This document shows positions 28,990-53,707 of a stretch of 64,000 bases of DNA, in pieces. The notes below the pieces were generated by a model. That model made no database searches and was not told where the DNA came from. It worked only from the letters and a program-made list of their open reading frames with translations. The stretch's first letter is position 1. Every line of letters begins with the position of its first letter. This stretch comes from Cyanophora paradoxa CCMP329 (Eukaryota; Plantae; Glaucophyta), in NCBI GenBank assembly GCA_004431415.1, contig QPMI01000144.1, positions 10,325 through 74,324 of the forward strand. The letters are read 5' to 3'. Position numbers and translations under genes: made by a program.

Positions 28990-29076
28990 CTGAATTTAAT
29001 GCAAACGCGCGCATTTCAGCGTTTCAAAATCAAAAAAAGATTTTGCACACGTGCACGTGTGCAAGTATACGTCTAC

Positions 29077-29359
29077 TGTTGTAAAGGGGAGGACCCCCCC
29101 CCAAACCAGACCGCCCCCAAAGTCTGGTTTTACCTTCAGGGATCCACCCCTTCTAGCGTCATCAATTAGCGATTTTTCTGAGATCAGTTAGGCGTGTTAA
29201 TTAGGCGTGATGATGGACGAGCATGGATTTGAAGATTGGAAGGCGTGAGGGCGAGTGCATTTGGATCTGAGTAGAGAATATCGAGGGAGCTCTATCTAGG
29301 CGCTATCAGGGGCGACCTCCCAAGCGGTACGGGCCCCCAGAGCGGTCTGGTGCGGCCTC
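29077..29359 (+). repeat. Left terminal inverted repeat (283 bp)
   Basis: TGTTGTAAAGGGGAGG...GGTGCGGCCTC, exact reverse complement of 53415-53697 by manual comparison. Confidence 0.96.
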
Positions 29360-29558
29360 TGGAGATGAGAAACGTCGAGATTAATATGTACAGTACTAGT
29401 GGACCTATAGCTAACTGCTGAACGTAACTGCTCCTCACACAAATCAGAGTCATATATCAGAGTCAGAGTCAGAGTCTGAACTGTTCCTTACTGAGTCAGA
29501 GTCAGAGCCATAGAGTATTCTATAGCTAATCATTTGATAGCTATAGAATAATTCAAGA

Positions 29559-29813
29559 TCAATGCGCCACCGACATGGAGGGCAGTAATCTGATATATCG
29601 ATATATAGGTGTCAGAAAGCATTTCAGCAAAGAATGATATATAGTCATTATATAAGTAAACGCACATTTGTGGCGGTCGGGCACGTCCGCATCCTGTAGA
29701 GGACGAGAGTCTGCACACTCGCAGCAGCAGGGCATACAACCGGACTTGACAAGGGCGCATGCTGCCTTTTCGCCGTAACGGTGAATCTTGCGCGACGGCT
29801 CGCACACGTTCAT
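29559..29813 (-). CDS. Small Cys-rich protein, paralog of 29886..30134
   Basis: CEPSRK...CALVKSGCMPCCCECADS matches CEPSHK...CALVKYGCLPCCCECMDS. Confidence 0.4.
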   Translation of the reverse strand: MNVCEPSRKIHRYGEKAACALVKSGCMPCCCECADSRPLQDADVPDRHKCAFTYIMTIYHSLLKCFLTPIYRYIRLLPSMSVAH

Positions 29814-29885
29814 TCTTGCTTCGACGCGCCAGCGGCACGGAGGGCAGTAATCTGATAGATTTTATTAGGCAAGGCACAAATTGTA

Positions 29886-30134
29886 CTAAGTGTACGTAAT
29901 TGCACACGCACACATATGGTAGCGAGAAGGGATGCTAGAACGTATACTAGAATCCATGCACTCGCAACAGCAGGGCAAACAACCGTACTTTACAAGGGCG
30001 CATGTGGATTCGAAATTGAGCTTGTGGGACGGCTCGCACAGGAAGCTGGTAATGTGAAGGCAAATCTCTTCTGGAAACGGCAGAACCTCAGTCAACAGCT
30101 GTGCAACTTCTGTGACGGTTGCCGATCGCGACAT
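29886..30134 (-). CDS. Small Cys-rich protein with an F-box-like N-terminus
   Basis: LPFPEEICLHITSFL resembles the F-box pattern LPxEIxxxIxxYL; followed by PCCCEC. Confidence 0.45.
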   Translation of the reverse strand: MSRSATVTEVAQLLTEVLPFPEEICLHITSFLCEPSHKLNFESTCALVKYGCLPCCCECMDSSIRSSIPSRYHMCACAITYT

Positions 30135-30804
30135 GGCCCAGTGGTCTACTAGGCCCGGGCTAGCGCTAGTACGACTCTGTAGTAGAGTCTGTACGAGTAG
30201 GCTACGCCGCTACTAGGCTACTTACTACTACTAAGTTAGCCGCTAGTAGCCCGCTACTATAGTACGCCGCGACCGCGACTTGCCAAGTTGCCAAGTTGGC
30301 GAGTGTGATAGCTGAAAGCCGCTGAGCACGCCTTTTATACTACGGTTGTGTTTCTTTATTCAGAAAGAAAGATAATAATTGCAATTTGGCCGGCTTAAGA
30401 AGGTTCCATCAAGTTCTGCTACTTCATATAACAAAATTCGCATTTAACATAAAAGAATTAAATTCTGGGTCCCGAAGGTTCCAGCTGCCGAGTCAGACGT
30501 GGCAGCTTGCCATTGGCCAACGTGGCAGCTCGCCATTGGCCAACTTCAAGAATTGTGCAATTAGCAAAATGAGTTATATTCGTATTTGTTTGCGCCATGA
30601 TATTGAAAAACAGTACAATTGTAAGATTTGTCTATAGCAATTCTCAATTCTATTGCTGAAGTTCTAGCAATTCTCAATTCTCTACCTGCCAGGCTGTTGC
30701 TGCAACTTCAAATTTCAGGCTTGCTAGCATGCTGGCCTAGCTAGCGCCGCCGTCAAGGCCGACGTACTACTGTAGGCGTAGTTTTTTAGCCGTTGTAAAT
30801 AATT

Positions 30805-30944
30805 CGGCAATTTAGTATGACGGCAATTGCTTTGGGGGTAGGTAAATGCTCAGCCCGCCATAGAGCAGAAATCTGGATTCGGCAATTTAATACCACGGCA
30901 ATTCCGGTTTTGGACAAATTCGGCAATTTTACTACGCGGCAATT
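30805..30944 (+). promoter_or_regulatory. Three pairs of CGGCAATT direct repeats, candidate protein-binding sites
   Basis: Copies at 30805/30821, 30880/30896 and 30921/30937; each pair is 16 bp apart. Confidence 0.5.
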
Positions 30945-33526: not shown

Positions 33527-36500
33527 ATGGCCAGCACTGCAGCACTTAAGGCCGAACTTAGAAATTTAGCGACAGAACTTTATGATCGTGGATATGTTCA
33601 CGGGACATTTCGAAACAAACTGATGCGCCTAGCGGACGCTAGCAGCGGGACCTGGGGCCAAACGATTCGCAAATATATAGCGACACTGCTGCGACTGCGG
33701 AGCACGATTCGCCCAGCACGCCGCTTATATGAAGGCCAGCTCGCAGGCCATTTTGGCGCAATTGCAGCAGCTCGCGCAAACGCGGTTCAGGCCGAGGAGG
33801 CGATACTGGAGGACGTTCCTAATATATTTCAGGATGTTGAAGAAATTCCCGTGCCACAAGATCTGGATGGGGTGCTCTCTCACAGGCACCACCGCTATCC
33901 GAATTTACTATTCGATAAGCACGTATATGCAATCGAGCCCACCTACGATCCGGAGTCCGTAAAGAATTTAACTATCGACGTTCTGGGTCAACTGGGCATT
34001 GCAGAGATGATAGGGCGATTTGTGTTAATCCGGTTCCGCTTTGACAATAATCACATGTATACGACCCAGCTGATCCAAATAAGACAGAACGGGTTGCAGA
34101 GTTTGACTGAGAGTTTAGATGAGCGGATTGCGCAGTGGATGTCAGCACAAATGTCATATCAGGAGGACGATTTCTGGACGGTAACATCGATCGAGGTGTT
34201 AATTGCAGACAACGCGGCTGGCGCCCTAGGCAATGTTCCGAAATTGCCATTTTATCATAGGACAGTCGATAAGCTATACTGCCCGATGTCCCCAGCGAAT
34301 GACTGCGTGCTCGAATGCTTTGAGTACGTTAAATTAAATCCACGCGGACTGAGCCTGAAGACAGTAATCGAAAAGCTGGCAAAGGCACCCTATGCATCTA
34401 TTCGAGAGCGGCTCGGACTGGGAAAGGGCATGATATCTCTTGATCGCAGCACAGTAGAAGCAATCTGCGGATTTTATTCGATAGATACAACTGTGACGGA
34501 GTGGGCAAACACGAAATTCAAGGAGCTTTTTCGAACCCAGTTTGATTATTCGAAGCGTGCAATTCTCTGCAACATTGATGGGCATTGCTACCTGATTAAA
34601 AAGGAGGCGACACTAGGTCTGGAGCGGTGCCCTTGCTGCGGAAAGATGTTTGATTTGGCAACGCATGTGGAGCAATGCACGTTCTGCAATAACTGCAAAC
34701 GCGCGTACGACCCCAGAAAAGATCATTCATCAGAGTGCCAGGAGATGACGCGCCGTCAAAACGTGATCGGGCGGCAAATCAAGCCCTGCAAACCGGAGAC
34801 AGAATTTACAGCGTTGGACAGCGTTGTCTGCGCGGATTTTGAAACGTTTGCTGCCAACGGCAAGACGCACGTTCCATATGCTGTCAGCTATTGCACGATT
34901 GAAAAAGGGGAGGTCTCGCCATGCGAGTTAATTTATGGTGAGCAAACGTTGGACTTGTTCATGCGCTGGCTTGAGCGCCGCAGCGAAAAGACGACGTTGG
35001 TGTTCTACAATGGGTCTGGCTTTGACTATATATTTGTCTACAAATGGCTCGTGTTAAATCGACCGAATACAGCATTAAACGTTCTGCGGTCGAACGGCAA
35101 GATCAAGAATATGTCGTGGAAAACGGCTGCAGGCGGGCCTATAAGTACGTTTGATCCGTGCCTGCACATCCAGGCTTCGCTCAAACAGGCCTGCAAGGAC
35201 TACGGCTGCACTAACGTAAAGGGAGATTTTGATCATAGCAAGATTAAAACGTGGGAGGACGTTGAGCGCTTTAAATCTGAATGGGAGCCGTACGTGGAAG
35301 ACGACGTTAAGGCAATGACAGAGCTTTACATTAAATATTCGACAGCAGTCTTCGATCTGTACGGCTTAAACGTGAACACAACGCAAACAACCACAGCTTC
35401 GGCAATGGCGTTCCAGATTCATCGGCAGACGTTGATCAATCCAATTTCGCTACCGACCTACAAGGATGATCAGGTGCTGCGCCAGGCAATATATGGTGGA
35501 CGGTGTCTCCCATTTAAACGCAAATTCGTCTCATCGGGCCCGGATGATTATTTAGTCGACCTGGATGTTGTAAGCTTGTATCCGACGGCTATGTACGAGA
35601 ATTGGTTTCCAACTGGAAAGTACAAGCATATTACGTCGCCCGATGCGCTGGACAGATTCTGCAAGATATTACAATCGAATCAGCGTTCGTTGATGTTTAT
35701 TGCGTGCGTGGACGTGACAATTCCGCAAAATCTGCTGCTCTCTCCGCTGCCACGGCACGAATCTAATCTAGGCTGGTCTAATCTCAAGCCAATTGAGCGC
35801 GGTTGGTATACGTCAGTCGATATTAATCGTGCAATTAAACTGGGATGCGAGGTGACGAAGGTGCGCGAGGTCTACCTGTTTGACGGTAAAGATCAGATGT
35901 TTAAGACCTACATGGAGCGGATGTACTGCCAGAAAGCTAGATCTCGCAAGGGAACAGCTCCGTATGCGACGTCAAAGATTTACATGAATGGCCTTTACGG
36001 TAAATATTGCCAGCGGCCTGTGATCACAACCTCGGATCTGGTCACATCATACAAGCGATTTCGAGAAATTCAGCGATCAGCGCAGATCACAGACATTTCG
36101 ATCGAATCAGACACGCGGATGTTTGTCACGTACGAGATTGAGGAGTCCAAGCGTGATAGAGCTGTCACTAAACCGTGCTTTATTGGCGCATTTATTCTGT
36201 CATATTCGCGGGAGATCATGGACAGGTTTCTGATTGAAATAGGCGCATACTGGAGCATCGATGCAATGCCGTTTTATACTGATACGGACTCTTTGATTGT
36301 CCATCGAAAATACGCTGATCTGCTGCGGGCAAAAGGTTATATGAAGCCAGCATATGATATAGCGACGGCAACAGATGCGGACATTTGCAGGCAGGAACTA
36401 GGGAAACTTGACTGTGACATTAAAGGGCGGATTGTGGAAGCGTACTTCATTGGGCCGAAGCTTTATACGTGTTCATTTGTACGTGACAGCGACGCGCAGC

Positions 36501-36852
36501 TTGATCTGCATGTACGCGCAAAGGGGATTCCGCAATCGTGGATCCAGGAGCACTGGCTACCAGACGAACCAGAGGCGAGGAAAGGGGCCCTCGACCGCAG
36601 GATCGCTCTGGATGCTTACAGGTGCATGCTCGAGGATCCCACGTACCAACCCAAATGCACAATCGAATCAAAGCTGGCCCGTGTTTATAAACCGAACGGG
36701 CGGCAACGGAGAGCGGAATCAGCTTTAGTTCCATGATCCAAATTCCGTTCGCTCGACAGCTGAACAAGTCGCAGTATACAAAGCGCAAGATAATTTCGGA
36801 CGAATACTATAGTAGCGTCCCCCATGAGTACCGCGCAGGCGAGCCGAATTAA
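33527..36852 (+). CDS. polB: Protein-primed family B DNA polymerase (pPolB); frameshift near 36700
   Basis: ExoI ADFET, ExoII FYNGSGFD, ExoIII YVEDDV, DVVSLYP, KIYMNGLYGK and YTDTDS. The shifted frame supplies the expected tail YTKRKII...SSVPHEY, ending TAA at 36852. Confidence 0.95.
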
Positions 36853-38010
36853 GCAAGCTTATTACGATCCGGAAACTGGCTTTCAGTCTGCGGCGAGGAT
36901 AGCTAAGCGGCTCAATTTACCGCTATCAAGAGTGCAGGACGTACTTTCAAAATTGACGACTGCGCAGCGTTTTGCGAAACCTGTAAAGGAAAAGCCATCG
37001 ACCAGCATAATTTACGGGGAGCCCGAAAAGTACTACGAAGTCGATCTGATTGATGTGACCCGTACGCGAGAACTAATCGAGGGATTACTTTTATTATGAA
37101 CGGTATCGATGTGACGACGCGCAAAGCGTATAGCATCCCTATGAAGACGAAATCGGAAAGCACTCTGCTAGCCAGTTTGAAGAAATTGATTGATGCACTC
37201 CCCTCGAAGCCGGACGTCATTCAGACAGATCAGGAGTTCAAAGGAACCGCAGCAACAATGCTAGCGAGTATGGGCATCAAGCATAATGCAGTGGAGGCGC
37301 ATCGCCCGCAAGCAAACGGCAAAATAGAGAGATTTAATGGTACGCTTAAGCGCATCATTGCAAAGTACATGGATGCGTACGACACGGACAGATATATCGA
37401 TAAGCTGCCTGCTTTCTTGCGCAATTATAATTCGTCAGAGCATAGGTCAATTGGTACGTCGCCGAACGCTGCAGCAGAAAATCCGAAGGAGACAATTGCA
37501 CGCAACGACTACCAGAGAGAAGCGTACGAGCAACAGCACTATTTTGCCCAAGCGGAATTTAAGGTAGGCGATCGGGTGCGAGTGCAGCTAGAGCGGCAGC
37601 GTTTCGACAAGTCTTCAAAGCCGACGTATTCAAAAGAAATCTACACGATCACGGAGATAGGTGGCTTTGGGCCGCTGCTCAAATTTACGCTTTCGGGCTA
37701 CGACAAAGCGGTGACCTACCAGCGACTATTGAAAGTAGCGGCAGATTCAGAGGAACGTCGTGCGGGCAATGCAGCACAGCGGGCACAGCAGCGCAGGAAG
37801 AAAGAGATTAATCTAATGCAAGAGAATCTAGACAAGAGTGATATAGAGAGAGCGCGCAAACTCGAGCGTTTGCAGAAGCAATTGTTGACTGCAGGTAAAG
37901 AGAAGCTGAACCCAGGAGGGGCAACACAGAGATGGTATTCGTCGTTCCAGAATAAAACTGCAGCGTACTCAGCCCCTGGCAATACGCGAACTCTCCGCCC
38001 ACGCGCGTGA
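36824..38010 (+). CDS. int: Retroviral-like (rve/DDE) integrase of Polinton type; frameshift near 37060
   Basis: YYDP N-terminus, EVDLID, QTDQEF, NGKIERFNGTLK, YNSSEHRSIGTSP and FKVGDRVRV. ORFs 36824..37099 and 37096..38010 join with a one-base correction. Confidence 0.92.
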
Positions 38011-38076
38011 AAAAGAAAGGGAGCCATCTTGGCTTCCTCCTTCTTTCGCTCCCCTCTTTTTACTAATTGCCGGCCA

Positions 38077-38352
38077 TTAGAGAGCTATAACAATTGTTTG
38101 TTGGAGGGACTCTAGCAGAGCTAACTTTTCGTAGATTCGATTGCGATAGCGGCGATTGGCCTCCAGATGGCCCTCACTGTTATTGCGTTGATATTTCAAA
38201 CTGGCTTCGATGTGACGTCGCCGGTAATCAGGATCTTCATTGTACCTGCGCCGATGGCTCTCCGCTCGCTTGGCCTTCCGTGCCGCAGCGATTTCAGGGG
38301 TGACAACAATTGGCTTGCGGCCTGGGCGCTTTGGCGATGATTCGGCATCCAT
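38077..38352 (-). CDS. Small basic protein, possibly DNA-binding
   Basis: KRPGRKP (AT-hook-like) followed by an Arg/Tyr-rich helix. Confidence 0.5.
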   Translation of the reverse strand: MDAESSPKRPGRKPIVVTPEIAAARKAKRAESHRRRYNEDPDYRRRHIEASLKYQRNNSEGHLEANRRYRNRIYEKLALLESLQQTIVIAL

Positions 38353-38463
38353 ATTTGCGGGTTTCTCGTCACAAACAAGGAGCGAAATAATTTTATGGCA
38401 TCAATCGCAGAACGACCAACTGCGTTGGATTTCGAGAATTAAATCCGAGATATAATTAAAACA

Positions 38464-38820
38464 ATGCCAGCAACGATCCGATTCGGCAAGTATCGAGGGG
38501 AGACGCATCTGGAGGTTGTTTACAGGGATCCAAAATATGCAGAATGGTTAATTTCGTGGCCGCATTTGCGCCCATACGATAAGCAAAAGCTTGAGCGTGC
38601 ATTCGAAATGTGCCGCACAATAGAGGGCTCTGAGCTTAGGAAGATGATTGACTTCGCAAAGCAGCAGCGACGTCCTACAGTCGAAGCCGATGGGCTGGGC
38701 GAACTGATTACAGTCGAATCCGCCGACCTCCAGAGCTCCCTTCATTTGAGAGCTTGTAGAATTGGGCTCAGAAACATTGGGGGTAGCTGGCTTTACAGCT
38801 GCATCATCGAGAGCTTGTGA
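38464..38820 (+). CDS. Protein with a DUF3820-like FGKY motif
   Basis: IRFGKYRGETHLEVVYRDPKYAEWL fits the FGK(Y/H)xG...P.Y..W pattern. Confidence 0.55.
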   Translation: MPATIRFGKYRGETHLEVVYRDPKYAEWLISWPHLRPYDKQKLERAFEMCRTIEGSELRKMIDFAKQQRRPTVEADGLGELITVESADLQSSLHLRACRIGLRNIGGSWLYSCIIESL

Positions 38821-39339
38821 AGCCTTTTCTTTTTCGATTTTTAAATAGCGTAAATCTGGCACGTCCATAGGTCTGTGCTTAAACATCTCGCTTCGAAGCA
38901 TCTCCCGAATTTTCGCTCTCTCTTGCTTTTCCTTAACGTATGATTCGACATTAGCCGACCGCGCTTCCAGATCACGCAATTTCGCTGCAAGCTCATCGAA
39001 CTGGCTTTTGCTCAAAGCTGGCGCACGTATTTTCGGGCCAGAGTACCGCGGCTCGCTAGCCATCGCTTGGAGAATTCTTGCAGCATCATCGTCGATATCG
39101 GACTGCATTTCGCTCACGGTTTTAACTTGTCCATGGCGATCGTCGGTCGCACTGGCATTCGCTGCTGCCGAGGCGATCGTTTTAGCTACGGGTGCATTTA
39201 GGCGGGGGTCACTAGCTAGCTCACCGCTAGGATCAGCAACAGCTGCGCCCTCAGTTGAGCCGCTTTCAATCAGTGGGGCGTTCGGCTCGGGGAGCACCCT
39301 TCGTTCCCGGTAGCCTTTTCTTGGAACACCGCGTGGCAT
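38548..39339 (-). CDS. Hypothetical viral protein downstream of the ATPase
   Basis: ATG 10 bp after the ATPase stop, with a coiled-coil segment. The 3' part overlaps the opposite ORF, so the true end may be earlier. Confidence 0.5.
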   Translation of the reverse strand: MPRGVPRKGYRERRVLPEPNAPLIESGSTEGAAVADPSGELASDPRLNAPVAKTIASAAANASATDDRHGQVKTVSEMQSDIDDDAARILQAMASEPRYSGPKIRAPALSKSQFDELAAKLRDLEARSANVESYVKEKQERAKIREMLRSEMFKHRPMDVPDLRYLKIEKEKASQALDDAAVKPATPNVSEPNSTSSQMKGALEVGGFDCNQFAQPIGFDCRTSLLLCEVNHLPKLRALYCAAHFECTLKLLLIVWAQMRPRN

Positions 39340-39348
39340 CTTTTTCTC

Positions 39349-40092
39349 TTATGGTAAGATTTTAAAACGCTTCTTTTTGGGATGAACAGGCGTTGAATTT
39401 TCTTTCTTAGGCTCTTCTTGTCTTAGCCATTTAGTAAAACGAAAGCTCTTATCTTCAACGGCTTTATCAACGTACCAGGCCGTATCATACTTAGTTCCAT
39501 CCAGGACTAGGCACTGATAATCATGCGCCCAAGTCTCGAACAAGGCGATGAACTTATCTTTTGGGAGATGACTGAACTCTCTATAGATCGCCTCGAGCTC
39601 GGTATGATTAGAATAACTAAAGAAAAAGCAGTAATCGCTGTTTGATCTTATAGATTGACTAAGAGCTGTTAGCTTTTGCGTCATAAGAATCGTACTTATA
39701 TTAAAATGGCGGCCCTGCGTAAAAAGTCGATTTACAGCCTTGCTGTTTCGCAGATCAACAGTTTCAGAGGCGGCAACTAGATCGTCCAATACAAGCAATA
39801 TCTGCGGTGCTTTCTCTTTGTTTTCGATCAACTTTCGCTGTGAATCAATGATTTCTGCAACTATGGCGGGTTGAAAATCGTCGTAAAGCTCTTTAGTTAT
39901 TGCAGAGTATTCACCATTGAATTTGGTGGCAGTGAAAACGACGACTCGGTTGATCTTTGGATACAGCAGTCGAAGCAGATGCTTTGTGCAATAGAACGAT
40001 TTGCCGCTATTGGACTTCGATATAAATAGGGCTTTGAAAGGGACCCTCATGTCTCCCGGCTGGAACTGTGCGAGCTCTTGAGACTGATCCAT
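39349..40092 (-). CDS. A32-like DNA packaging ATPase
   Basis: Walker A SKSNSGKS, Walker B LLVLDD, and QGRHFNISTILMTQ...IRSNSDY. Likely start MDQSQ at 40092. Confidence 0.92.
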   Translation of the reverse strand: MDQSQELAQFQPGDMRVPFKALFISKSNSGKSFYCTKHLLRLLYPKINRVVVFTATKFNGEYSAITKELYDDFQPAIVAEIIDSQRKLIENKEKAPQILLVLDDLVAASETVDLRNSKAVNRLFTQGRHFNISTILMTQKLTALSQSIRSNSDYCFFFSYSNHTELEAIYREFSHLPKDKFIALFETWAHDYQCLVLDGTKYDTAWYVDKAVEDKSFRFTKWLRQEEPKKENSTPVHPKKKRFKILP

Positions 40093-42571: not shown

Positions 42572-43461
42572 ATGCGGCTTACCTTTGACAGCAGAGACAG
42601 AAGGCCAATCGATTCCGAGGCAAACTTTGTGCTCGAAATCAATGAACCTATAATCAATCCAGTTGCTGTTCGACTTACCCAGTGTGAGTTCGCAAACAGC
42701 CTTTACACCAGCATTAAAGATGAGTATCTTTCGATCACCTTTCCCTACATTGGGACAGAAAATCTGGCGGTTTTTGAGCCTGGCATAATTACTACTGCAA
42801 ATCTGGGCGAAACAGATATTTATAACTTTGGCCTATCGTTTAATATTAGGCTAGAAGGGATCTCAATCGCATATTTCAAATTGTTTCGAGACCCAGAGAC
42901 GTTGAAAATGTCTGCCTATTGCAGCCGTTCCTGCACACTGACCTGCCAGTTCAAAGCTCTATCGAATCTGCTTGGGCTGAACCGAAATGAGTCTCTCCAG
43001 CTGTCTCCTATCGTGCTTGAAGGGGGCAAAGACCAGCAACTGCAGCTGAGCGGTATCTCGAGGTTGCTGGCATTCCAGTTACACCTGCTCACCCTGAGTA
43101 CGGCATTGATTTCACCGGAAGAATGCGGAGTGAGCCACTTGGTTATGCTGTCGAATTTCCAAAGATAATCGACATGAACAGCGACCAGTACCTCTTCCTT
43201 GTCTGCGAAGAGCTACGGCCATTTGCTTCAAAGCTTCGCCGCGGGGCCAAAACAATGTGCAATTATGGGCTCGCTCGAATTCAAATGAGCCAGGACGTTG
43301 GCAAGTTCGTTTATATAAATCAGGAAAATGACGGCGAGTGGATCCCCATCGAAGAGCGCCTAGTGCTGACCTCTTTGCGACTGCGCATTGTCGACAGAGA
43401 TGGTGATGACGTCTCTCTGAATGGCCTGCCATGGTCTGGTGAACTGCAATTTTTAGTTTAG
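42572..43461 (+). CDS. Minor capsid/penton-like protein 2 (frameshift at the G-run near 43022)
   Basis: FDSRDR, CEFANS and LRLRIVDRDG..VSLNG. The corrected frame reads YLEVAGIPVTPAHP, matching FLYFAGVPITPNHP in element A. Confidence 0.72.
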
Positions 43462-44937
43462 GTAACGTCCCCGGAAATCAAGCCGGAACGCATTCACATT
43501 TATAAATTCGTTTGTTATAATTTGCACATAGTTATAAACCTGTGGGGTGATCAAATGCGAGTCACTATGCATTAGATCAAAGCCTGTCATAGATGGGTTT
43601 GCAGCAAGCACATTTGCTAGGACCGTATTCTCAAATAGTGACCCGTCTCGTAAATATCCTAAGTTGGTCAGAATGCTGAAATTAAATAGGACTCCGGCAG
43701 CAAAGGCTGGCCCATACATAATGATTTGATGTAGCTCAAAAGGCTTTGGAAATTCGACTCTGATCCAGGGATTAGGTAGAGTGCCACCTTGGAACCCTGT
43801 TGAGTTGGGTCGCACATGAGAAGGTGGGTGCAATTCCTCAAAGTCGTTGCTTATGATGTTTGCATCTGGAATTATAAACCAGTTTACATCAAATGGCGGC
43901 TCAACTGTTAAAGTAGACGATATGATTAGTCTCTCATCGTTCAGTAGGTCGTAGTTCGCCAATAGAAAGCTGCAGAGTGCATTTATTTTAGCATTTATTT
44001 CGATTTGTTTCAGCCATAAATCTGTTGTGGAAATCAAATAAGAAATATTCGATGGGGAGGCATCATCAAGCTTGCTCATGACTGCAGCTGGCAGCGGAAC
44101 ACTTAAACGCCAGTATCTAGTTAGATTCCTATCTGCATCAACTGGAAGCAGTTCCTGCATTTGAAAGTGCGATTCCAGCTCGCTACCTGACATTAGCATA
44201 GAAATGATTGGGCTGCCTGAGAGGGATAGGATCCAGCCCAGAGCGCCCCAGCCTGACGTCTCCGAATTCGAAAAGCCTGCAGTCAATTGCTCACTGGCTT
44301 GGACCTCACCACAGCTAATGCTCACAAGAACAATTGGATCTTCTGCATCGTAAATTTTACTGGCGTGGCTGAGTGCAGCAACTGAGGGATTATTCAAACA
44401 GGCTATCGCCCCGTCAACAAGGTTTTTGTCCCCTAGAACCTTCGGTGGAAAGAATGTAGGCGCTGCAGAAGATGCTCTCACTGCATCACGAATCAGCGTG
44501 CTTGAATATGGCCCATCCTTCGTAAAAACTACTGGCTGCATCCGAACTGTATCAAACGCTGTAATTAATACGTCTTTTGTCGATTCTGCAATTGTGTAGT
44601 CCAGGGCAACGTCTGTAAGCACCGACTCCAGAGGATTTGCATCATAGCGGCTTCCTGAGAGCAAGCTTGTCAGTGATCTTGGATTTGCAAATATTGTTGG
44701 CAGGTTCGTTTGATATAGACTCAAGATATCACCTGCAGAATATCGGTAAGCAAGAACAGAGCCTGGAGTTGATGGGATCGCCAATCCGGCCGCTATTATT
44801 GCCCCTGTTGAGGTGCCTGCAAAGAAATCAAACAGCTGTGGTATTGCTTTCCCAGTAATCGCCTCAATCCGCTGTAGAATTCGGGCTATGACTATTCCAC
44901 GAGCACCTCCACCTGATAGTGAGAGAATGACCTTCAT
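43453..44937 (-). CDS. Patatin-like phospholipase with a C-terminal extension
   Basis: SGGGARG oxyanion loop, GTSTG nucleophile, ASSAAPTFF and DGA catalytic Asp. Likely start MKVIL at 44937. Confidence 0.92.
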   Translation of the reverse strand: MKVILSLSGGGARGIVIARILQRIEAITGKAIPQLFDFFAGTSTGAIIAAGLAIPSTPGSVLAYRYSAGDILSLYQTNLPTIFANPRSLTSLLSGSRYDANPLESVLTDVALDYTIAESTKDVLITAFDTVRMQPVVFTKDGPYSSTLIRDAVRASSAAPTFFPPKVLGDKNLVDGAIACLNNPSVAALSHASKIYDAEDPIVLVSISCGEVQASEQLTAGFSNSETSGWGALGWILSLSGSPIISMLMSGSELESHFQMQELLPVDADRNLTRYWRLSVPLPAAVMSKLDDASPSNISYLISTTDLWLKQIEINAKINALCSFLLANYDLLNDERLIISSTLTVEPPFDVNWFIIPDANIISNDFEELHPPSHVRPNSTGFQGGTLPNPWIRVEFPKPFELHQIIMYGPAFAAGVLFNFSILTNLGYLRDGSLFENTVLANVLAANPSMTGFDLMHSDSHLITPQVYNYVQIITNEFINVNAFRLDFRGRYLN

Positions 44938-45052
44938 TTTTAAAAGGGGGCTTATATAAAAATGTCCTACATCTTGAAGAAGCCAGTGCCACTTCGTAAA
45001 GCTCCAGATTTTGTGGATGATCGGCATATAAATATTCGCGTATTTGGGAGTA

Positions 45053-45571
45053 CTACTGCTGGAAATTCAGCTGCAGGAATTGCTTATCAGCCTCTAAAGT
45101 GTGCACAATAGCAAATGCATCACGAGCACGAGCAGCAGCCTCGGCTGTGTGGAAATAACCTATGTGCTTCTTTTTACCATCTACATTAAAATAAGCTCGC
45201 CATTTACTACTTGATCTATCAAAGTTGACTCCAATAAATCCTGATGAATTGTTAGATTGGCGGTATCGATTCAAAATTTGCTGGCGCCTAGATGCAACTC
45301 GCAAATTTTCACGTCGATTGTCGAGGGGATTATGGTTGATGTGATCGACAGATAGGCCTTCTTCGATATTTGGAAAGAGAAACACTTGAAGTTTAATTGT
45401 TGTATACTTCCCGTTTACTTTTATGTTAGCCTGAGCATAGCCATTATTATCCAAGTGCCATTTCTTCTGAAGAACTCGTTCGGTATCTTCGTGAGACACA
45501 AGGGTATATGCACGAATGTTTCCTCGACGATCACGGAGTGGAACCGCCATTGCACCAACAGGAATGTCCAT
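45053..45571 (-). CDS. HNH-AP2 homing-endonuclease-like protein
   Basis: VDHINHNPLDNRRENLR (HNH) plus SGFIGV...KWRAY...HIGYFHTAEAAARARD (AP2). Confidence 0.9.
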   Translation of the reverse strand: MDIPVGAMAVPLRDRRGNIRAYTLVSHEDTERVLQKKWHLDNNGYAQANIKVNGKYTTIKLQVFLFPNIEEGLSVDHINHNPLDNRRENLRVASRRQQILNRYRQSNNSSGFIGVNFDRSSSKWRAYFNVDGKKKHIGYFHTAEAAARARDAFAIVHTLEADKQFLQLNFQQ

Positions 45572-45679
45572 TTCGATTCCAGCTTACTTAAGCTTGGCTT
45601 CTTTACAGTTAGAACCCGACATCTCTTTATAGCATATCAAAGTCTTGATCTGCATTCTTTTATCGAACCATCTACTATC

Positions 45680-48600
45680 ATGTCTTATCTCCTGAGAAAG
45701 CCTGTGCCTCTGCGACGGCCACCAGAATCGCCTGAAGAGGATAGGCTCATTAATATTCGCGTTTTCGGAAGCATTTTGGCTGACTACAATGCTGACAAAG
45801 ATATACACCAGACCGAGTTTAATCGCCCAGCTGCGTTAATTCTGCGCAACTCACATGTTGGCGCCCCGGACATTGCACAGAGATTTTGTCTAGGTCCAGC
45901 TGAGAACTATGTTGCTGAAATAATTGGATCCAGGGCGTTGCCGCGGCACCTGCGAATTGCCTCCTCAGGCACTGTTTCCAAGTATGATTCTGGTAGATTA
46001 ATCTTTAGGCTCCAAAATGATAGAGGGGTCCACACATCAGCTCTACGCCTAATTGATGAATCCAATGCTGTCACAAACAAGACTGCGGCTCACATTACAG
46101 GGCGAATTCTCCTTGGCGAAGATGCAGGAATATCAGTGCTAGCATCACAAATCCAGCCGTTTCCCTGGGATTTACTTTTTACAGCTGCACGAGAAGCAAA
46201 TATTTTATACGGTTTTGATGTAAATCAAATCGATACCGAGCCAGCCACCAGGTTAGATATTCCTGGATGCACCTTTGGCTCGATCCTGATGGAAGCTGAT
46301 AGGCACCTGCTCCCGGCGTTGCATGACAGCTACGATCTTGGGCTCCGCACCAGGCAGTGGCGAAATATTCACGGCACGTCGATTTACCAAGATGGAAAAA
46401 GGTCATCACTGAACCGGAGATAATAAACATTTTCAACTACTACTTCGGACCTATTGTCCCTATACCACCTATACCACCTCTTCCAGGGCTACCGAAGCCA
46501 AACCCTGAAGGGCCAGGTCGTGAGAGAGTTGCAGATGAAACAATTCCATTCGGGCAAAATATTATTTCGTGGGAGGCTGTCAGGAATCGCCCCGTGATAG
46601 AACGCTATAAGCATCCGCATGAAGAATACCTGCCGCCTGATATTGAAGTTTTCCCGCTCGAAATGTACACAGAGCCTGAAGAGCAGTTACTTCCTGATGG
46701 CTTAGATGTTCAAGAACTCCAGTACGAGCAACCTGTGATTCCACATGAGCAGCTGCTTCCAGACGGCTTTGAACCTATTCTCTTCCCTTGGAGTTCACCG
46801 TAGATTGGGAATCAATAACCAATAAACCTGGGAGTTTTCCACCAGAGGAACACAGGCATGATTGGGATGAAATCGATAATAAACCGTTGCGGTTTCCCCC
46901 AGAGGATCACAGACATGATTGGGCTGAGATCGATAATAAGCCTTTACGGTTCCCCCCAGAGGATCATAGACACGACTGGGGTGACCTTGATAATGTTCCG
47001 CTTGAATTTCCACCGGAAGATCACAGACACATTTGGAGCGAAATAGATGAGCAGCCCGAGTTCGCAAAGATTGAGCTTCCTGTCACACTAGCTGTCTCTC
47101 TCTACAAATCAATTAACACCCCTGAAAGGTTATATTTGAATGACCACTATGTCCACAGGCAGGGAATTCGTGCTAACACTGACATGTCAGGCTCTTTGTT
47201 TGTAAGGATTCCCCGTGGAATGGAGATAGTTGCTGCTGGCGGGAATATTGGTTTGCAGGACACGTTCCCAAGTATTTATGTCACAAACTACTACGCCTCT
47301 GACATCGAAATGACATCTGTTCTACCTTTTTTGCCTTCACTGCCGTTGGATCCTCTCTCCCATGCTGATTTTCATTCTGCAATCCAGATTAATGTAACAG
47401 ATGTTAGCGATTTAGATTCATCGAGACCGAAATTAGTTTTTAGCCGTGAACGCCTTTTACCCAATGCTCTGATAGGAAATCGAGATGATTATAAGAAATG
47501 CGAAATAGCATGGATAAAAACGAACTATAACGGTGGAGTTGGGGAGGGCATTTTAGAAATTAATCAGAGGGCAGCAGCAAAAAACATTCACAACGAGACT
47601 ATATCCAGAGTGGTCACAGAGGATTACCTTCAAGCCCAAAATTATGTAGATGAAACAGAGCTCGCTTTAGTTATTGCAGGTCTAGCTGTGACAGGGAATT
47701 ACCTGCCCTTGACAGGAGGAACTATTGACGGAACAGTGACTGCTGACAACTTTTTTGTTCACACTGAAAGTGATCAGACCTTCCCTGTGGTTCACCCAGG
47801 AGCTGAGTACGAGATTCCTATTGATCCTGCTATTATGCCCATAAAAATCGATCTCCCTTCCGATTATGTTGGACGGGGTGAACTGAAAATAATCTCTTTC
47901 ACAGGAGATTATAATGATCTTTTAAACAAGCCTACTGCTGAGAACCTTCACCCTGTTGCCTATTCAGGAAATTTCCTCCATTTAAATAATAGGGCACACA
48001 CCCACACAAAGGCTGAGATCACAGATTTTGCACACACTCACACGAAGTCCCAAATAACAGATTTTGCACACACCCATACCCGAGCAGATATAACTAATTT
48101 CGCTCACACCCATGTTAAATCAGAGATAACTGATCTTGGGAATGTTGCTTATGTTGGTCATACCCATACCAAGGCAGAGATTACAGACCTGGGAAATGTA
48201 TCGTACGTTGGTCATACCCATGATTGGAATACTGATATCTATAACAAACCGGCGTTGTTCTCAGGCAACTACAACGATCTGACCAATAGACCCACTCTTG
48301 ATCCCTTCACAGCCACCACTATCAGAGCCAATAATACAATGTATGTAGGATCAGGTCAGATTGTAGAACCAGCAGGGCCTATGTTTGAAGAAACATGGTT
48401 CTTCCACAATTCGCAGAATTACTTTGATAAAACCTTACTTGTTCGTGGAAATGCCTATGCAAGAAATTTCTATGCTATGAACCCCTCAAATAATGCGACC
48501 ATCAGTCGATGTATTACAGAGGCAGATCTTTCCAGTCAACTCAATGCATATTTTAATGGGAAAATTCAAGCAGGGAAGTATGTTTACACTACTCCCGTTT

Positions 48601-48854
48601 TAGATTACAATAATCTCTATGTGTTCAATCTAACTATCTATTTTACCAATGCCTTTGCTTCTCCTCCTGTTGTGACAGCAACAGTAAGGCATGAAGGACA
48701 AGATCCAAATTATCAATTAACTCCCGTCGTTTTTACTGTGAACCTGTTGAATGTTTATAGTAACTATTTTACTTGTGAACTTTTCACTGATCCATATGCA
48801 ATGATTAATTCATCCAAAACTGTTACAATTCATTACATTGCTGTCGCAATTTAA
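45680..48854 (+). CDS. Long phage-like tail-fibre protein (three ORFs joined over frameshifts near 46398 and 46787)
   Basis: Four HRH(D/I)W.(E/D)(I/L)D..P..F repeats, six HTH...I repeats (HTHTKAEITDFA type), GxYNDLxNxP twice, YLPLTGGTIDG, and a C-terminal FTNAFASPPVVTAT (H-type lectin/gp53-like). Joining the three ORFs is an inference. Confidence 0.75.
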
Positions 48855-48873
48855 CTGTTTGGTAATTATAAAG

Positions 48874-49875
48874 ATGACATCTGTATTAGAAATCCCGAAT
48901 TATGAATTAGCAGCCAAATCACTGCATAGCACCTCTCATGAAGTAGTTGATTCTACACCTGGGAATATCTGCACCGAAACAGCAAGCAATACCTCCTTAA
49001 CCGAAACCAATATTTTGAGAGTCAAAGAAATACGCTGTGACCGAAATGGAGGCAAGATACGAACTACAGGTATTATTATTTCGAATAAAAATCAGGTTCA
49101 AGCAGGTCAAGTAGTCCCTGATTCAGCAGTTTATGATAACGTGGGTGGATTCACCACGGCAAAGATCGTAACTTTCGATAACACAAGCAATAACTCCGCT
49201 CTTGTGGTTAAGAGTGGTGGAGCCTATATTGGTGACGGAGCGATTGTAGTGGGGACTGTCACAGCAAATCAATTAAACGTGAGTGGTACATGCATTTTCA
49301 GTTCTTTGATGACTTTTAACTATGGCCTTTTAGGTAACATAATTTATGGGACTCTTCAGGCATTTCTGAGAGTTCAAGCACCCGAAATTGGTAGTGGAAC
49401 AGATTCCAACATGAGCTACAAACGAAATGGTAATGCAATTGTCACTCTTGAAAAAACGACGGTAGCAGAGATAGAGATAAACTCATTCACACTTTCCCCA
49501 ACTTGCTATTTGAAAAGGACTTATTGCCCAAGATTTTGTGTCACAAAACTATTACCTAATCAGGCAGCATCATCCTCATCATGGTCATCTGGCGTCCGTA
49601 TTACCTTCACAGTTCCTAATTTCGCTACTTATTATGTCAACAATGAAGGCAACTGGAATGATTCGTATATATTTACTGCACCTGTTGCAGGTGTTTACCG
49701 GGTTTTTTTCACAGCTCTCAGAATAGATACTCAGACTTCTTATGTGACTATCTTAAAGCTTTCAATAAATGGAATTGCATCCGATTACGAATTTCAATGT
49801 TCATTAACGGGACAAATGGCTATCACATACGAAACTTTACTTACTCTTAACATGGGGACAATGTTGGAGTATTAA
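48874..49875 (+). CDS. Fibre paralog 1 with a C1q-like head
   Basis: Shared N-module (PG.ICTE...KEIRCDRNGGK.RTT) and FTAPVAGVY. The true C-terminus probably extends to ~49945 past a G-run frameshift. Confidence 0.7.
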   Translation: MTSVLEIPNYELAAKSLHSTSHEVVDSTPGNICTETASNTSLTETNILRVKEIRCDRNGGKIRTTGIIISNKNQVQAGQVVPDSAVYDNVGGFTTAKIVTFDNTSNNSALVVKSGGAYIGDGAIVVGTVTANQLNVSGTCIFSSLMTFNYGLLGNIIYGTLQAFLRVQAPEIGSGTDSNMSYKRNGNAIVTLEKTTVAEIEINSFTLSPTCYLKRTYCPRFCVTKLLPNQAASSSSWSSGVRITFTVPNFATYYVNNEGNWNDSYIFTAPVAGVYRVFFTALRIDTQTSYVTILKLSINGIASDYEFQCSLTGQMAITYETLLTLNMGTMLEY

Positions 49876-49967
49876 ACTCAACAGGTGTTACCATCACTAT
49901 TAGCACACGCTGTTACTTGGGTGCTATCTCGTAAGTGCTATATAATATTGTCTGTGTAATATAAAGA

Positions 49968-50993
49968 ATGGCTACTCAAATAGCAGTCCCTGTTTTCTGT
50001 TACGCTGCACCGAAAATTCATCAACTCAACCACACTGTAACAGATGCAACTCCGGGTTTTATTTGCACAGAAACAACAGGAGCAGATTCATTTTCGCAGA
50101 ACTCTTTGATTCGATGCAAGGAAATCCGGTGTGATCGCAATGGGGGCAAAGTGAGAACCACAGGTCTCATCGTTTCGAACAAGAACCAAGTTCAATCAGG
50201 ACAGATCGTTTCTGATTCCGCAATCTATGATGATGTGGGAGGGTTCACCACACCCAAGATTGTTACGTTTGATAACACAAGTAATAATTCTGCTCTTGTC
50301 GTGAAAAGTGGAGGTGCTTACATCGGAGATGGTGCGAGGATTGATGGAAACCTTACAGCTGAGCAACTCACAGTAACAGGAACGACTACTTTTAATAACT
50401 TAGTAACAGCTAATGGTGGTGTGTATGTCCCTGGTGCTCAGCAGTCTATTGTGACAGCAACTACCAAAATTGTTACACCCGAAGTAGATACAGGTTCGAG
50501 CTCAAATCTTCTCTTGAAACGCAATAGTAATCTCATGGCGACACTGGAAGCCAATAGTCTCACTCTAAATACAGGTTGTTACTTCAAGTACGATTTTCAA
50601 CCTCGATTCTGCGCACAACTTGGTTACACACATGTTGCTTCAAGTGCTGCTCCTCTGATCAACTGGACAACAGTTTTTATAGACAACAGAGGTGCCTTCA
50701 ATACAGGCAATGGAAGATATACAGCTCCTGTTGCAGGACATTACAGATTAACTGTAAATTCTTCCTCAACATCTTCAACAGCTGTAAGTCTGACTTTGCA
50801 GGTAAACGATACTAACCCTGGTGGTCTGACCATCTTCACATCTGGAACTTCAACTACAATTGCAGCGAAACCTCTATATATCAACGTTATACTCAATCTT
50901 GCTGCCGGAGAATATGTCACAATTGTCACAGGAACAGCTGGTAGTTATGCAAGTCGAACAACATTTACAGCTGAACTTCTAAGTATCACATAA
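49968..50993 (+). CDS. Fibre paralog 2 with a C1q-like head
   Basis: Same N-module; FNTGNGRYTAPVAGHY...LNLAAGEYV is a C1q/TNF-like signature. Confidence 0.78.
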   Translation: MATQIAVPVFCYAAPKIHQLNHTVTDATPGFICTETTGADSFSQNSLIRCKEIRCDRNGGKVRTTGLIVSNKNQVQSGQIVSDSAIYDDVGGFTTPKIVTFDNTSNNSALVVKSGGAYIGDGARIDGNLTAEQLTVTGTTTFNNLVTANGGVYVPGAQQSIVTATTKIVTPEVDTGSSSNLLLKRNSNLMATLEANSLTLNTGCYFKYDFQPRFCAQLGYTHVASSAAPLINWTTVFIDNRGAFNTGNGRYTAPVAGHYRLTVNSSSTSSTAVSLTLQVNDTNPGGLTIFTSGTSTTIAAKPLYINVILNLAAGEYVTIVTGTAGSYASRTTFTAELLSIT

Positions 50994-51015
50994 ATTTTCT
51001 CTCTATAATGTAGGA

Positions 51016-51282
51016 ATGTCGAATATCTACCAAGTGGTTCTCTCAGATACTGAGAAGTTGGGAATGGAATATTGTGCTGCTTCTGTTCAGGATTGGATTG
51101 ATAATGTCGTTCATAACAGGGCAAGAATTGCAATTGATGAGATTGTTCAGAAAGAAATTCAATCTTGCATCTCATCAGGAGTTCAAATACCAACCTCAAA
51201 GGAAGCCATTGTGTCACAGGCATTCCAAAGGGGAACTGTAAAGAAAGGCATCGAGTATAATAATGTCACAGAAGAGCAGTGA
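51016..51282 (+). CDS. Small phage-like tail-fibre-associated protein
   Basis: LSDTE...MEY.A..VQDWIDNVVHNRARIAIDEI resembles small proteins I recall next to fibre genes in aquatic tailed phages; from memory, not a search. Confidence 0.55.
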   Translation: MSNIYQVVLSDTEKLGMEYCAASVQDWIDNVVHNRARIAIDEIVQKEIQSCISSGVQIPTSKEAIVSQAFQRGTVKKGIEYNNVTEEQ

Positions 51283-51330
51283 AGCTATAGCTTGTCTGCA
51301 GCCTATTTTTTTCTCTCGCATTTCTATCAA

Positions 51331-52178
51331 ATGACCGAGTACAATCGGGTTCAGCTACCTATCTACTCACTGGGCTCCCCAGCCATCCATATGAGGCAGC
51401 ATGAAGTTAGCGATGCTATTGCGGATTAGAGTCCACTGAGCGTCCAAACTCAACTAATGCATTTGATCAACGATCTGTGATTCGGTGTAAAGAATTGCGC
51501 GCAGATAAAAACTCTGGGGTTGTAAAAACAACGCGATTATTAGTCACTAATGCAAATTTTTCCCAGCCCATAACAGGGGGAGTTGATTCGTACAGTGTTG
51601 ACCTCCGAAGCATAAACTATGATCAAAACACTGCTGCCCTCACTGTGCGCTCCGGGGGAGCAGCTATTACTGGAGCTTGCCGTGTTAGTGGAGGACTATC
51701 ATCATCGATTGCCATCAATGATGTTCCAGACTTTTCATTAGAGAATGTCGAAAATCGTAAACGAGTTCGAATGTACTTACCTTGCTGTGACCTCCCCTAT
51801 GCACAAGCTCTAGTAGAAGTTGAGATAACCATAGCAAATTCAAGTACACCAAATGGTCTGGATGGTGAGAGGTTGCTTTCAAACAGAGAAATACCGAAGG
51901 CACTTCAATCACTCTGTCAGGATCAAAATGATCAGATAGGGCATGTGTATACGTTCTTTGTGCAAGGTCTTGGGCATGCTGGCCGGGGATACGTAGTTCG
52001 TAATATCAATACAAGGCATCTTTTCGATTTATATGCTACCGCTATAGGCAGATATTCTATCCTAATAATCGGATATCGCTCCGATGTAGCTGCATCAGCG
52101 GCCACTAGAGGACTGAACCCTGATCCAGCACTCAATAATATGTATGAGGAGAACAATCCAGAAAATCCTATAGCTTGA
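51331..52178 (+). CDS. Fibre paralog 3 (frameshift near 51423)
   Basis: ATG 51331 MTEYNRVQLP...QHEVSD joins GLESTE...IRCKELRADKNSGVVKTT; parallels 52207..53040. Confidence 0.68.
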
Positions 52179-52206
52179 GTGAAAGTTTTATCTTCTGTTT
52201 TCTAAA

Positions 52207-53040
52207 ATGGAAGCTGTTGAAAGAATTGTTGTTCCCTCTTTGACACTAGCAGCCCCAGCAAATCACGTCCTCCAGCATGCTGTCTCAGACGACGTGCCTG
52301 GTCTGCAATCAACTGAGCAGCAGCCAACTCTAAATACCTTCCGGGAGAATCACATATTACGTTTAGGCGAGGTTCGATGCGACAAAAATAATGGGACAAT
52401 AAAAACAACAAGTCTCCTTGTAACCAATGCAAACTTTAATTCAAATTATGGGGATCCTGATAGCTATGACGATGCTAATAAGGTCAATACTTTTACCTTT
52501 GAATCAAGAACAGGTGCCGTCACCTGCAGATTTGGAGGTGCTTATATTGGCGATGGTCTGAGAGTAGGCGGCGCTGCTTGTGCTCCTATATTTGTTAATG
52601 ATCAACCTAACCCTGAAAACACAAATGAAAGAATTCGAACCTATGTGCCTTCTATGAATTCGCCTTACATTATTAAACTATTCACCCTAAACATAAATGA
52701 GCAAACATCGATTGTAGATAACGTTCAGCCACTCGGAAATCATTTCAAGAGTGTTGTTGATATTCCCCCGGATGTCTACTTCCTTTGTAGAAGGAATGAT
52801 GCTCTCCGGCCAAACATAGCTGTTTTGATCAATCCTATCGATAATTTTGGTGTCGCTTTCCATTCGACTCCAGTTGGGGTTGAAGATTACCAGTTTATTG
52901 TGAGGGCCACGCTAATGGGTGCCTACAAAATTATTCTATTTGCTGAAAGAACAGATGTGATTGCAAGCGGGGTCAAGTATGGTGAGACCTTCAATTCGAA
53001 TCGTTACTTTCCAATTGGAGGGGCTGATCCCAACCCATAG
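52207..53040 (+). CDS. Fibre paralog 4
   Basis: QHAVSDDVPGLQSTE...GEVRCDKNNGTIKTT...GGAYIGDG N-module with a non-C1q C-terminus. Confidence 0.72.
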   Translation: MEAVERIVVPSLTLAAPANHVLQHAVSDDVPGLQSTEQQPTLNTFRENHILRLGEVRCDKNNGTIKTTSLLVTNANFNSNYGDPDSYDDANKVNTFTFESRTGAVTCRFGGAYIGDGLRVGGAACAPIFVNDQPNPENTNERIRTYVPSMNSPYIIKLFTLNINEQTSIVDNVQPLGNHFKSVVDIPPDVYFLCRRNDALRPNIAVLINPIDNFGVAFHSTPVGVEDYQFIVRATLMGAYKIILFAERTDVIASGVKYGETFNSNRYFPIGGADPNP

Positions 53041-53073
53041 AATCTTTGTTTTTATATATATTACCCCTTGTAG

Positions 53074-53478
53074 ATGGATCTGCTCCGTAAATGCATGGAC
53101 ATGTTCCATCTCAACGTCACCAGCAAATTGAAATGCAGTTGCTGCGAGACAACTATCAACCTCGAAATATCTGACACTGAGGGCTCACGCACCCCTGATA
53201 CTCAGCTATCGCCTAATAACACACCCGGACTTCTAGGTCCAATTCTCCTTTTACGCGATCTGATTCACCTATACCATGGCTTGATTCTGAAAGCCGAAGA
53301 TCGTCTTGGCCACCCCAAATATCCCGAAGCCCCTGAAAAGAAAGAAGTCCTTGCTATCAAGTTTCAGAAAGGAGAAGACTCCAGTTGCCGAAAAGCAACC
53401 AGATCAAGTGGAATGAGGCCGCACCAGACCGCTCTGGGGGCCCGTACCGCTTGGGAGGTCGCCCCTGATAGCGCCTAG
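53074..53478 (+). CDS. Small hypothetical viral protein with a CSCC motif
   Basis: ATG ORF after the fibre cassette; as assembled it runs into the right TIR, so the end is doubtful. Confidence 0.4.
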   Translation: MDLLRKCMDMFHLNVTSKLKCSCCETTINLEISDTEGSRTPDTQLSPNNTPGLLGPILLLRDLIHLYHGLILKAEDRLGHPKYPEAPEKKEVLAIKFQKGEDSSCRKATRSSGMRPHQTALGARTAWEVAPDSA

Positions 53479-53697
53479 ATAGAGCTCCCTCGATATTCTC
53501 TACTCAGATCCAAATGCACTCGCCCTCACGCCTTCCAATCTTCAAATCCATGCTCGTCCATCATCACGCCTAATTAACACGCCTAACTGATCTCAGAAAA
53601 ATCGCTAATTGATGACGCTAGAAGGGGTGGATCCCTGAAGGTAAAACCAGACTTTGGGGGCGGTCTGGTTTGGGGGGGGGTCCTCCCCTTTACAACA
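53415..53697 (-). repeat. Right terminal inverted repeat (283 bp)
   Basis: Reverse complement of 29077-29359; followed by GTCTAC. Confidence 0.96.
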
Positions 53698-53707
53698 GTC
53701 TACGCAC

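Follow-up and report, generated by a model that had tools for sequence, protein, structure and literature searches.

The accessible parts of three papers (PMC12220804, PMC8502044, and PMC10120064) describe polintons, or Mavericks, and polinton-like viruses of 15 to 30 kb that carry a family B DNA polymerase of the protein-primed type together with an rve integrase, end in inverted repeats of a few hundred base pairs, and are flanked by a 6-bp duplication. Endogenous polintons and polinton-like viruses have been catalogued in protists, including Cyanophora paradoxa (PMC12220804 and PMC8502044, in their accessible parts). We analyzed a window of 64,000 nucleotides of C. paradoxa CCMP329 (assembly GCA_004431415.1, contig QPMI01000144.1, positions 10,325 to 74,324 of the forward strand); the window is the whole stretch of DNA, and all coordinates refer to it. 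At positions 29077 to 53697 it holds an element that shares each of these features. With the same catalogued polinton-like group it also shares a module of packaging ATPase and likely capsid, patatin-like, phage-tail-repeat fiber, and free-standing HNH genes, and a G+C content below that of the host. Our preferred reading, to which we give a probability of roughly 45%, is that the element sits 4 bases past a GTGCGT splice donor, in a predicted intron of 91 bases that precedes the final coding piece of a beta-helix gene lacking annotation, and that the element likely disrupts splicing there instead of being removed as a 24.7-kb intron. The accessible parts of the three papers contain no description of this copy or of its position by a host splice donor; it may be one of the Cyanophora elements already catalogued.

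The endogenous mavirus-like elements (EMALEs) of Cafeteria burkhardae offer a second comparison (Hackl et al. 2021, PMC8547959, in its accessible parts). They share with the C. paradoxa element a 20-kb size class, inverted ends, short duplications, and a G+C content below that of a G+C-rich protist host, and they integrate without sequence specificity, which we count as a further likeness. Unlike the EMALEs, the element described here has a glaucophyte host and a likely capsid gene without a sequence match to solved structures, mavirus included, and no protease was found among its scanned frames. Its GTAGAC duplication is absent from the EMALE table as accessible, and the accessible text of that study gives no splicing outcome. 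A limited literature search for Cyanophora with Maverick, polinton, or virophage returned no paper on splicing around such an insertion.

The C. paradoxa genome has been reported to measure 99.94 Mb, with 67.6% G+C, 25,831 genes, and 9.2 introns per gene of a mean length of 86 bp (accessible part of PMC6704402). By arithmetic (25,831 genes × 9.2 introns × 86 bp over 99.94 Mb), the intron share of this genome comes to about 20%. Because of this share, and because related elements have already been reported in introns, a single placement in an intron needs no special explanation; such insertions are published, and this is an ordinary kind of insertion. The locus adds a further case to the documented integrations of polinton-like viruses in protists, and glaucophyte elements are catalogued but little studied. 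Its special point is one of geometry only: by chance, the 6-bp duplication made by the integrase restores the end part of a splice donor.

Limits and occupancy of the insertion

The element and its boundaries are as follows (no strand is assigned to these features):

29077 to 53697, polinton/Maverick-type virus element (inverted ends, duplication, and Pfam gene set)
29077 to 29359, left terminal inverted repeat, 283 nt, 0 mismatches to the right repeat
53415 to 53697, terminal inverted repeat at the right end, 283 nt, without a mismatch to the left one
53698 to 53703, first copy of the target-site duplication (minus-strand GTAGAC), which gives donor positions +5 to +10
29071 to 29076, second copy of the target-site duplication, read from the sequence

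The original prediction of a 24.6-kb virus with a target-site duplication held up well: the element measures 24,621 bp at 46.6% G+C, its two 283-nt ends are identical, the 6-bp duplication is perfect, and polymerase, integrase, and ATPase genes are present. An earlier estimate of 290 nt at 99% identity for the inverted ends came from a chance run-on through the near-palindromic duplication. On the minus strand, GTAGAC (53703-53698) is followed by the element tip TGTTGTAAAGG; at the opposite end, GTAGAC (29076-29071) comes after the tip ...CCTTTACAACA, so that the same six bases, GTCTAC on the plus strand, stand on both sides. An 18-mer from the element tip has two matches in the window, both at the element ends, with 0.04 expected. 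A 23-mer from the tip had no match in viral contigs or in metagenome contigs, and a 23-mer from the host flank had none in metagenome contigs. The inverted ends, the 6-bp duplication, and the genes for polymerase and integrase mark the element as Polinton/Maverick-type, and its gene set is that of a polinton-like virus. Duplications of 5 to 6 bp are customary for mavirus and for Maverick/Polinton elements (accessible part of PMC8547959). The rve integrase of the element presumably made a cut staggered by 6 bp and pasted in a linear copy, and the insertion appears to be recent, because the inverted ends are 100% identical.

In DNA runs X1 (2012) and X4 (2024), single contigs of the left host flank continue for 28 nt into the left end, and a contig of X1 extends 27 nt into the right end, which shows that the insertion has been kept in both runs. 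The right-hand flank is present in 20 of 24 listed runs, none of them recorded as RNA. Flank contigs have depths of 32.8 and 35.9, comparable to those of neighboring host contigs (about 11 to 32). No empty site was seen: none of the X1 or X4 loose ends listed lies at the duplication. A published k-mer and single-nucleotide polymorphism analysis favors a haploid genome (PMC6704402, in its accessible part), and since the genome is probably haploid, this strain would not be expected to carry an empty allele. The allele that the original prediction proposed to look for is thus missing from the DNA-contig rows listed, and what it called "this allele" is probably the sole copy.

Host gene and predicted intron

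The host sequence on both sides of the element was read on the minus strand:

53926 to 54669, minus strand, exon A, a beta-helix module whose 5′ limit is uncertain (open frame, Pfam, and homology)
53849 to 53925, minus strand, predicted intron A/B, 77 nt, GTGAAT...TTGCAG, phase 0, 33.8% G+C
53708 to 53848, minus strand, exon B, 47 codons, the last part of the beta-helix module, ending ...ATGAAG (frame and homology)
53704 to 53707, minus strand, GTGC, the first four bases of the predicted donor AAG/GTGCGT (compare the three RNA-confirmed donors)
28990 to 29070, minus strand, 81-nt 3′ part of the predicted intron, with a T-rich tract, CTGAA, and the acceptor ...TTCAG (sequence)
28711 to 28989, minus strand, predicted exon C, 92 codons followed by TAA at 28713-28711; coding status predicted (open frame)

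On the minus strand, the frame 53848-53708 ends ...GGAATGAAG and is followed by GTGC (53707-53704) and then by the duplication. The element lies 4 nt past the donor signal AAG/GTGCGT and 87 nt before TTCAG/; donor and acceptor enclose 24,718 nt when it is present and 4 + 6 + 81 = 91 nt when it is taken out. When the element and one copy of the duplication are taken out, a GT-AG interval links two open frames in phase 0, of 100 codons upstream and 92 codons downstream. Both splice-type signals are unchanged in sequence, the donor because the duplication restores positions +5 to +10. We therefore agree with the original prediction that both GT...AG signals are intact, GTGC plus GTAGAC forming the predicted donor and TTCAG at 28990 the acceptor on the minus strand, and that removal of the element leaves a 91-bp interval of a length typical for this genome.

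RNA evidence here means the assembled contigs of the RNA-type runs X21, X22, and X24. A spliced contig in X24, which has its match in X21, shows that these two runs are RNA. RNA confirms three introns within the window; their lengths are 82, 62, and 60 nt, their donors GTGCGC, GTGCGC, and GTGCGA, and their acceptors CAG. The predicted donor GTGCGT agrees with the GTGCG of all three, and 91 nt is close both to this confirmed range of 60 to 82 nt and to the published mean of 86 bp. The interval has 41.8% G+C, compared with 53% and 50% in the frames that flank it; the upstream frame comes to its end 16 codons beyond the donor, and the downstream one starts 2 codons ahead of the acceptor. Our estimate that the 91-nt interval truly is an intron stands slightly above one half, and among single gene models this one is the best.

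Exons A and B are, on sequence grounds, real coding sequence of a beta-helix host gene family, as indicated by homology, by G+C at codon positions, and by the longer alignments obtained when the two are joined. Exon A holds an intact frame of 248 codons (258 codons from stop to stop), with G+C of 0.64/0.42/0.62 at the three codon positions, and matches Pfam Beta_helix with an E value of 2.2e-5 at 24.6 bits, slightly below the cutoff of 25.9. Among 1.84 billion representatives it has three relatives, the best two being the Cyanophora proteins P0001 and P0002, to which it is 33 to 34% identical; P0001 consists of two beta-helix modules and a C-terminal RING. A search for homologs of near length gave 487 candidates, none of which scored. 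With exon B joined to exon A, both alignments with P0001 became longer, one rising from 56.2 to 62.0 bits and the other from 46.2 to 54.3 bits; the alignment with P0002 was extended as well.

A number of findings weigh against the preferred reading. Exon C is without a homolog: a search gave one candidate, which did not score, no ESM Atlas match was usable, and BLAST to P0001 was at chance level. Exon C has a weak Pfam match below the cutoff, its G+C signal at codon positions is weak (0.51/0.46/0.53), and its addition to exons A and B barely altered the alignments. The 53708-28989 junction was not found in annotated models or homologs, nor was it seen in the RNA-type contigs of X21, X22, and X24; the original prediction had proposed to look for it in RNA. 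In-frame GT-AG pairs are frequent in this sequence, with 78 observed versus 19.1 in shuffles for any GTR donor, and 7 versus 0.68 for a GTGCG donor. A naive exon-chaining script chose another path, which bypasses the 91-nt intron. That so long an intron would not be spliced in this alga is drawn from short-intron genomes in general. The claim that the element lies inside a host intron of about 91 bp accordingly stands as to its GT...AG ends, length, and phase 0, while the joining of exon C to 53708 is unconfirmed by RNA, homolog, or annotation. As to whether the two flanks belong to different genes, which the original prediction gave as the finding that would overturn it, no finding assigns exons B and C to separate genes, and none links the two.

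Two donor-like sites beyond the element, 29056 (GTGCAC) and 29050 (GTGTGC), also count against the 91-nt intron. Both are in phase 0 to the same acceptor at 28990 and would give introns of a typical 67 and 61 nt; if either is used, the element sits in an exon. It is possible, if rather unlikely, that the element lies in coding or 3′ sequence in this way, either since exon B is the last coding exon or since the real donor is at 29056 or 29050, and that the frame is truncated or interrupted directly. The read-through frame is open across the duplication and ends 16 codons after ...GMK without the element and 5 codons after it with the element, and the lack of a homolog for exon C is in keeping with such a placement. 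So is the record from Cafeteria, where 13 of 22 classified EMALE sites are in exons and 4 in likely 3′ untranslated regions, with 2 in introns and 3 intergenic (PMC8547959, in its accessible part). Set against this, GTGCGT alone among the three donors matches the GTGCG of the RNA-confirmed introns (3 of 3), the G+C content of the interval is below that of both flanking frames, a T-rich tract stands ahead of the acceptor, and the 92-codon frame opens only just before it. We thus keep the 91-nt intron as the preferred model.

The base composition of the flanking gene raises another doubt. It has about 50 to 56% G+C in a genome of 67.6% G+C, it is absent from the published proteome (homolog searches returned no self-match), and it may be a decaying pseudogene or foreign DNA. 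Under this explanation, the flanks would not be a working host gene at all; they would be a decaying beta-helix paralog or older foreign DNA of low G+C, the insertion would be neutral, and the splice signals would be relics or chance. Over about 3.8 kb the flanks have 43 to 58% G+C, compared with up to 83% nearby, no annotated or assembled protein matches exon A itself, and the exons of the 5′ part cannot be arranged cleanly. Yet exon A is intact over its 248 codons, has a coding-type G+C periodicity, and finds its best relatives among Cyanophora proteins; the A/B intron is backed by homology; and the depth of the flank contigs is like that of neighboring host contigs. With these points in view, we consider a nonworking gene unlikely and return to a host gene interrupted in a predicted intron.

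Likely consequence for the host transcript

In genomes with short introns, the spliceosome recognizes each intron across its own length. A donor that lies 24.7 kb from its acceptor would pair instead with a nearby cryptic acceptor or be read through. The inverted end itself would supply such a cryptic acceptor, GGTTTTACCTTCAG/G, 73 nt downstream of the donor. There are ten cryptic YAG acceptors between 43 and 243 nt past the donor, and all of them give stops after 1 to 31 added codons; plain read-through past the donor meets a stop after 5 codons. Seven open frames of the element (38077-45571) run in the sense of the host gene. In a probably haploid genome, the alga would then tolerate that a dispensable gene of poor expression is lost or truncated.

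The cryptic acceptors, the early stops, and the element frames on the sense strand favor disruption, and from this anatomy we infer that disruption or truncation is much more likely than clean removal of 24.7 kb. The original prediction had left two outcomes side by side, silent splicing and a knockout; of these, the anatomy makes silent splicing unlikely and disruption the likelier.

Silent carriage would mean that the spliceosome removes the whole 24.7-kb interval and produces a normal mRNA, with host transcription running through the virus. The unchanged state of both splice-type signals and of the 81 nt on the acceptor side fits this explanation, as does the retention of the insertion in X1 and X4, 2012 and 2024. 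The interval, at the same time, is about 290 times the mean intron of 86 bp, the ten cryptic acceptors lie at most 243 nt from the donor, and the transcript ends of the seven sense-oriented element frames would be expected to stop a through-transcript. At another copy of the element, RNA contigs carry its tip unspliced. Together, these points make silent carriage very unlikely. About as improbable is a provirus that functions as a spliceosomal intron of 24.7 kb, transcribed through and cleanly spliced, so that the virus hides without a cost to its host and perhaps gains expression from host read-through. The site would offer a clean natural test of a short-intron spliceosome faced with a 270-fold enlarged intron.

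The RNA-type contigs that carry the tip come from X21, X22, and X24 (3 of 3), are 1.3 to 1.9 kb long with a depth of about 40, and join the outer 149 to 166 nt of the identical inverted end, unspliced, to a flank that lies outside the window. They map at 53535-53700 and 29075-29239. Because they join the tip unspliced to a different flank, transcription crosses the junction between host and element at another copy. Over 36000-55900, RNA-type contigs number one per run and cover 53535-53700 only; the blank over 53701-55900 and over the remainder of the element's right-hand 17 kb is not counted as evidence.

Gene content of the element and its surroundings

The genes of the element, and the next host gene downstream of the insertion, are the following:

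33527 to 36736, plus strand, family B DNA polymerase of the protein-primed type (Pfam DNA_pol_B_2, E 2.1e-50, 172 bits)
36824 to 38010, plus strand, rve-type integrase in two frames, 36824-37099 and 37096-38010 (Pfam rve_3 on the second piece)
39349 to 40092, minus strand, A32/FtsK-type packaging ATPase (Pfam Pox_A32)
40155 to 41543, minus strand, likely major capsid protein, 462 amino acids, beside the ATPase (ESM Atlas clusters)
41588 to 42544, minus strand, putative minor capsid (penton) gene, named by its position beside the capsid gene
43453 to 45027, minus strand, patatin-like phospholipase with an extra C-terminal region (Pfam Patatin, E 8.1e-26)
45053 to 45571, minus strand, HNH endonuclease with an AP2-like domain (HNH_3 E 3.8e-10; AP2 E 4.9e-5)
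47184 to 53040, plus strand, fiber-like genes, one with phage-tail repeats plus three paralogs (PTR E 2.8e-7; C1q E 9.8e-6)
27037 to 28152, minus strand, next gene downstream, coiled coil and C-terminal RING, tig00000572_g2209.t1, 250 amino acids (EukProt identity)

The second piece of the integrase matches rve_3 with an E value of 1.4e-8 at 34.8 bits, against a cutoff of 26.5. At 37058, the meeting point of these two frames, the length of X1 contigs varies by a single base, and the split frame is either an assembly error or a change specific to this copy. The packaging ATPase matches Pox_A32 with an E value of 2.4e-9 at 37.5 bits, the cutoff being 22.8.

Based on its sequence, the protein encoded at 40155-41543 is likely the major capsid protein. 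Its nearest ESM Atlas clusters are all viral (score of 0.98; 220 of 256 features), with capsid families of nucleocytoplasmic large DNA viruses on only 12 to 30% of the members in those clusters, and it is 56% identical to a second copy at 229-1656. The candidate had no Pfam match, no match in a PDB sequence search, and no relative in viral contigs, and an AlphaFold model built from a two-sequence alignment had a mean predicted local distance difference test score of 35 and was unusable. We also compared the element with mavirus-type capsids. A phmmer search against all PDB chains, which presumably include the mavirus capsid proteins, gave chance matches (E of at least 0.079); judged by capsid sequence, then, the element is not a mavirus-type virophage. 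The putative penton gene had no family match in Pfam or in the PDB sequence search. No adenovirus-type cysteine maturation protease was recognized: the 24 frames scanned contained no protease family (Pfam, E ≤0.01), and a divergent one is possible.

The three fiber-like paralogs (333, 341, and 277 amino acids; 48874-53040) have a conserved N-terminal half and C-terminal heads that differ, and the C1q-like score belongs to the middle one only. Just inside the left end, at 29559-30134 on the minus strand, there are two paralogous cysteine-rich frames of 84 and 82 amino acids, which share ALVK.GC.PCCCEC and had no family match.

Comparison with the contigs of X1 revealed differences between copies or assemblies. 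One X1 contig with a depth of 586 skips 726 nt (45055-45780) and has 5 other letters in their place, so there are other copies of the element without the stretch that holds the HNH/AP2 endonuclease gene. This presence and absence fits a mobile, homing-type gene. Inside the element (36707-53655), all 11 listed length differences between the window and X1 contigs are single bases present in X1 and absent from the window, and a single base is likewise missing from the window at 29113. One of the 11 falls at the meeting point of the integrase frames. These differences are either under-called bases in a long-read assembly or differences between copies.

Downstream of exon C, the frame 27040-28152 is 100% identical over 248 amino acids to the EukProt C. 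paradoxa protein tig00000572_g2209.t1, and its RING is 60% identical to that of P0001. The identity to the EukProt protein points to Cyanophora as the host and, together with the lack of GTAGAC in the EMALE table, speaks against Cafeteria. We considered that exon C might continue into this RING gene, in the manner of the beta-helix and RING of P0001. A path search with donors that match at least 4 of the 6 bases of GTGCGC, introns of 45 to 220 nt, and at most four introns found no path that links the frames, and exon C and g2209 are therefore treated as two genes. The exon C frame itself terminates at its TAA (28713-28711).

The g2209 model begins with two residues (ML) that are not encoded beside residue 3 at 27783. 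An X21 RNA contig lies on 27854-28093, upstream of 27783, and as far as 28152 the frame stays open and contains no ATG. For these reasons, the annotated model is probably truncated at its 5′ end. In the bins 28092-28755 and 28756-29400, RNA-contig depth is in slight surplus over the listed contigs; this is a hint of some transcription within 28092-29074, from which no conclusion is taken.

The window contains no tRNA genes. It also contains a second related virus element at 1-5170, which is cut by the window start and has 38 to 43% G+C. This element carries a capsid-like gene at 229-1656 on the minus strand, a penton-like gene alongside in two frames (1657-2085 and 2004-2672), and short GTGACA-rich repeats throughout 4060-4560. 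Long proline-rich open frames of high G+C (762 and 363 amino acids from stop to stop; 5242-7961, minus strand) adjoin it. Inverted arms of 28 nt (5171-5198 and 5238-5265) with a 39-nt loop stand exactly at the boundary from low to high G+C, and may represent the end structure of this first element or a small separate element.

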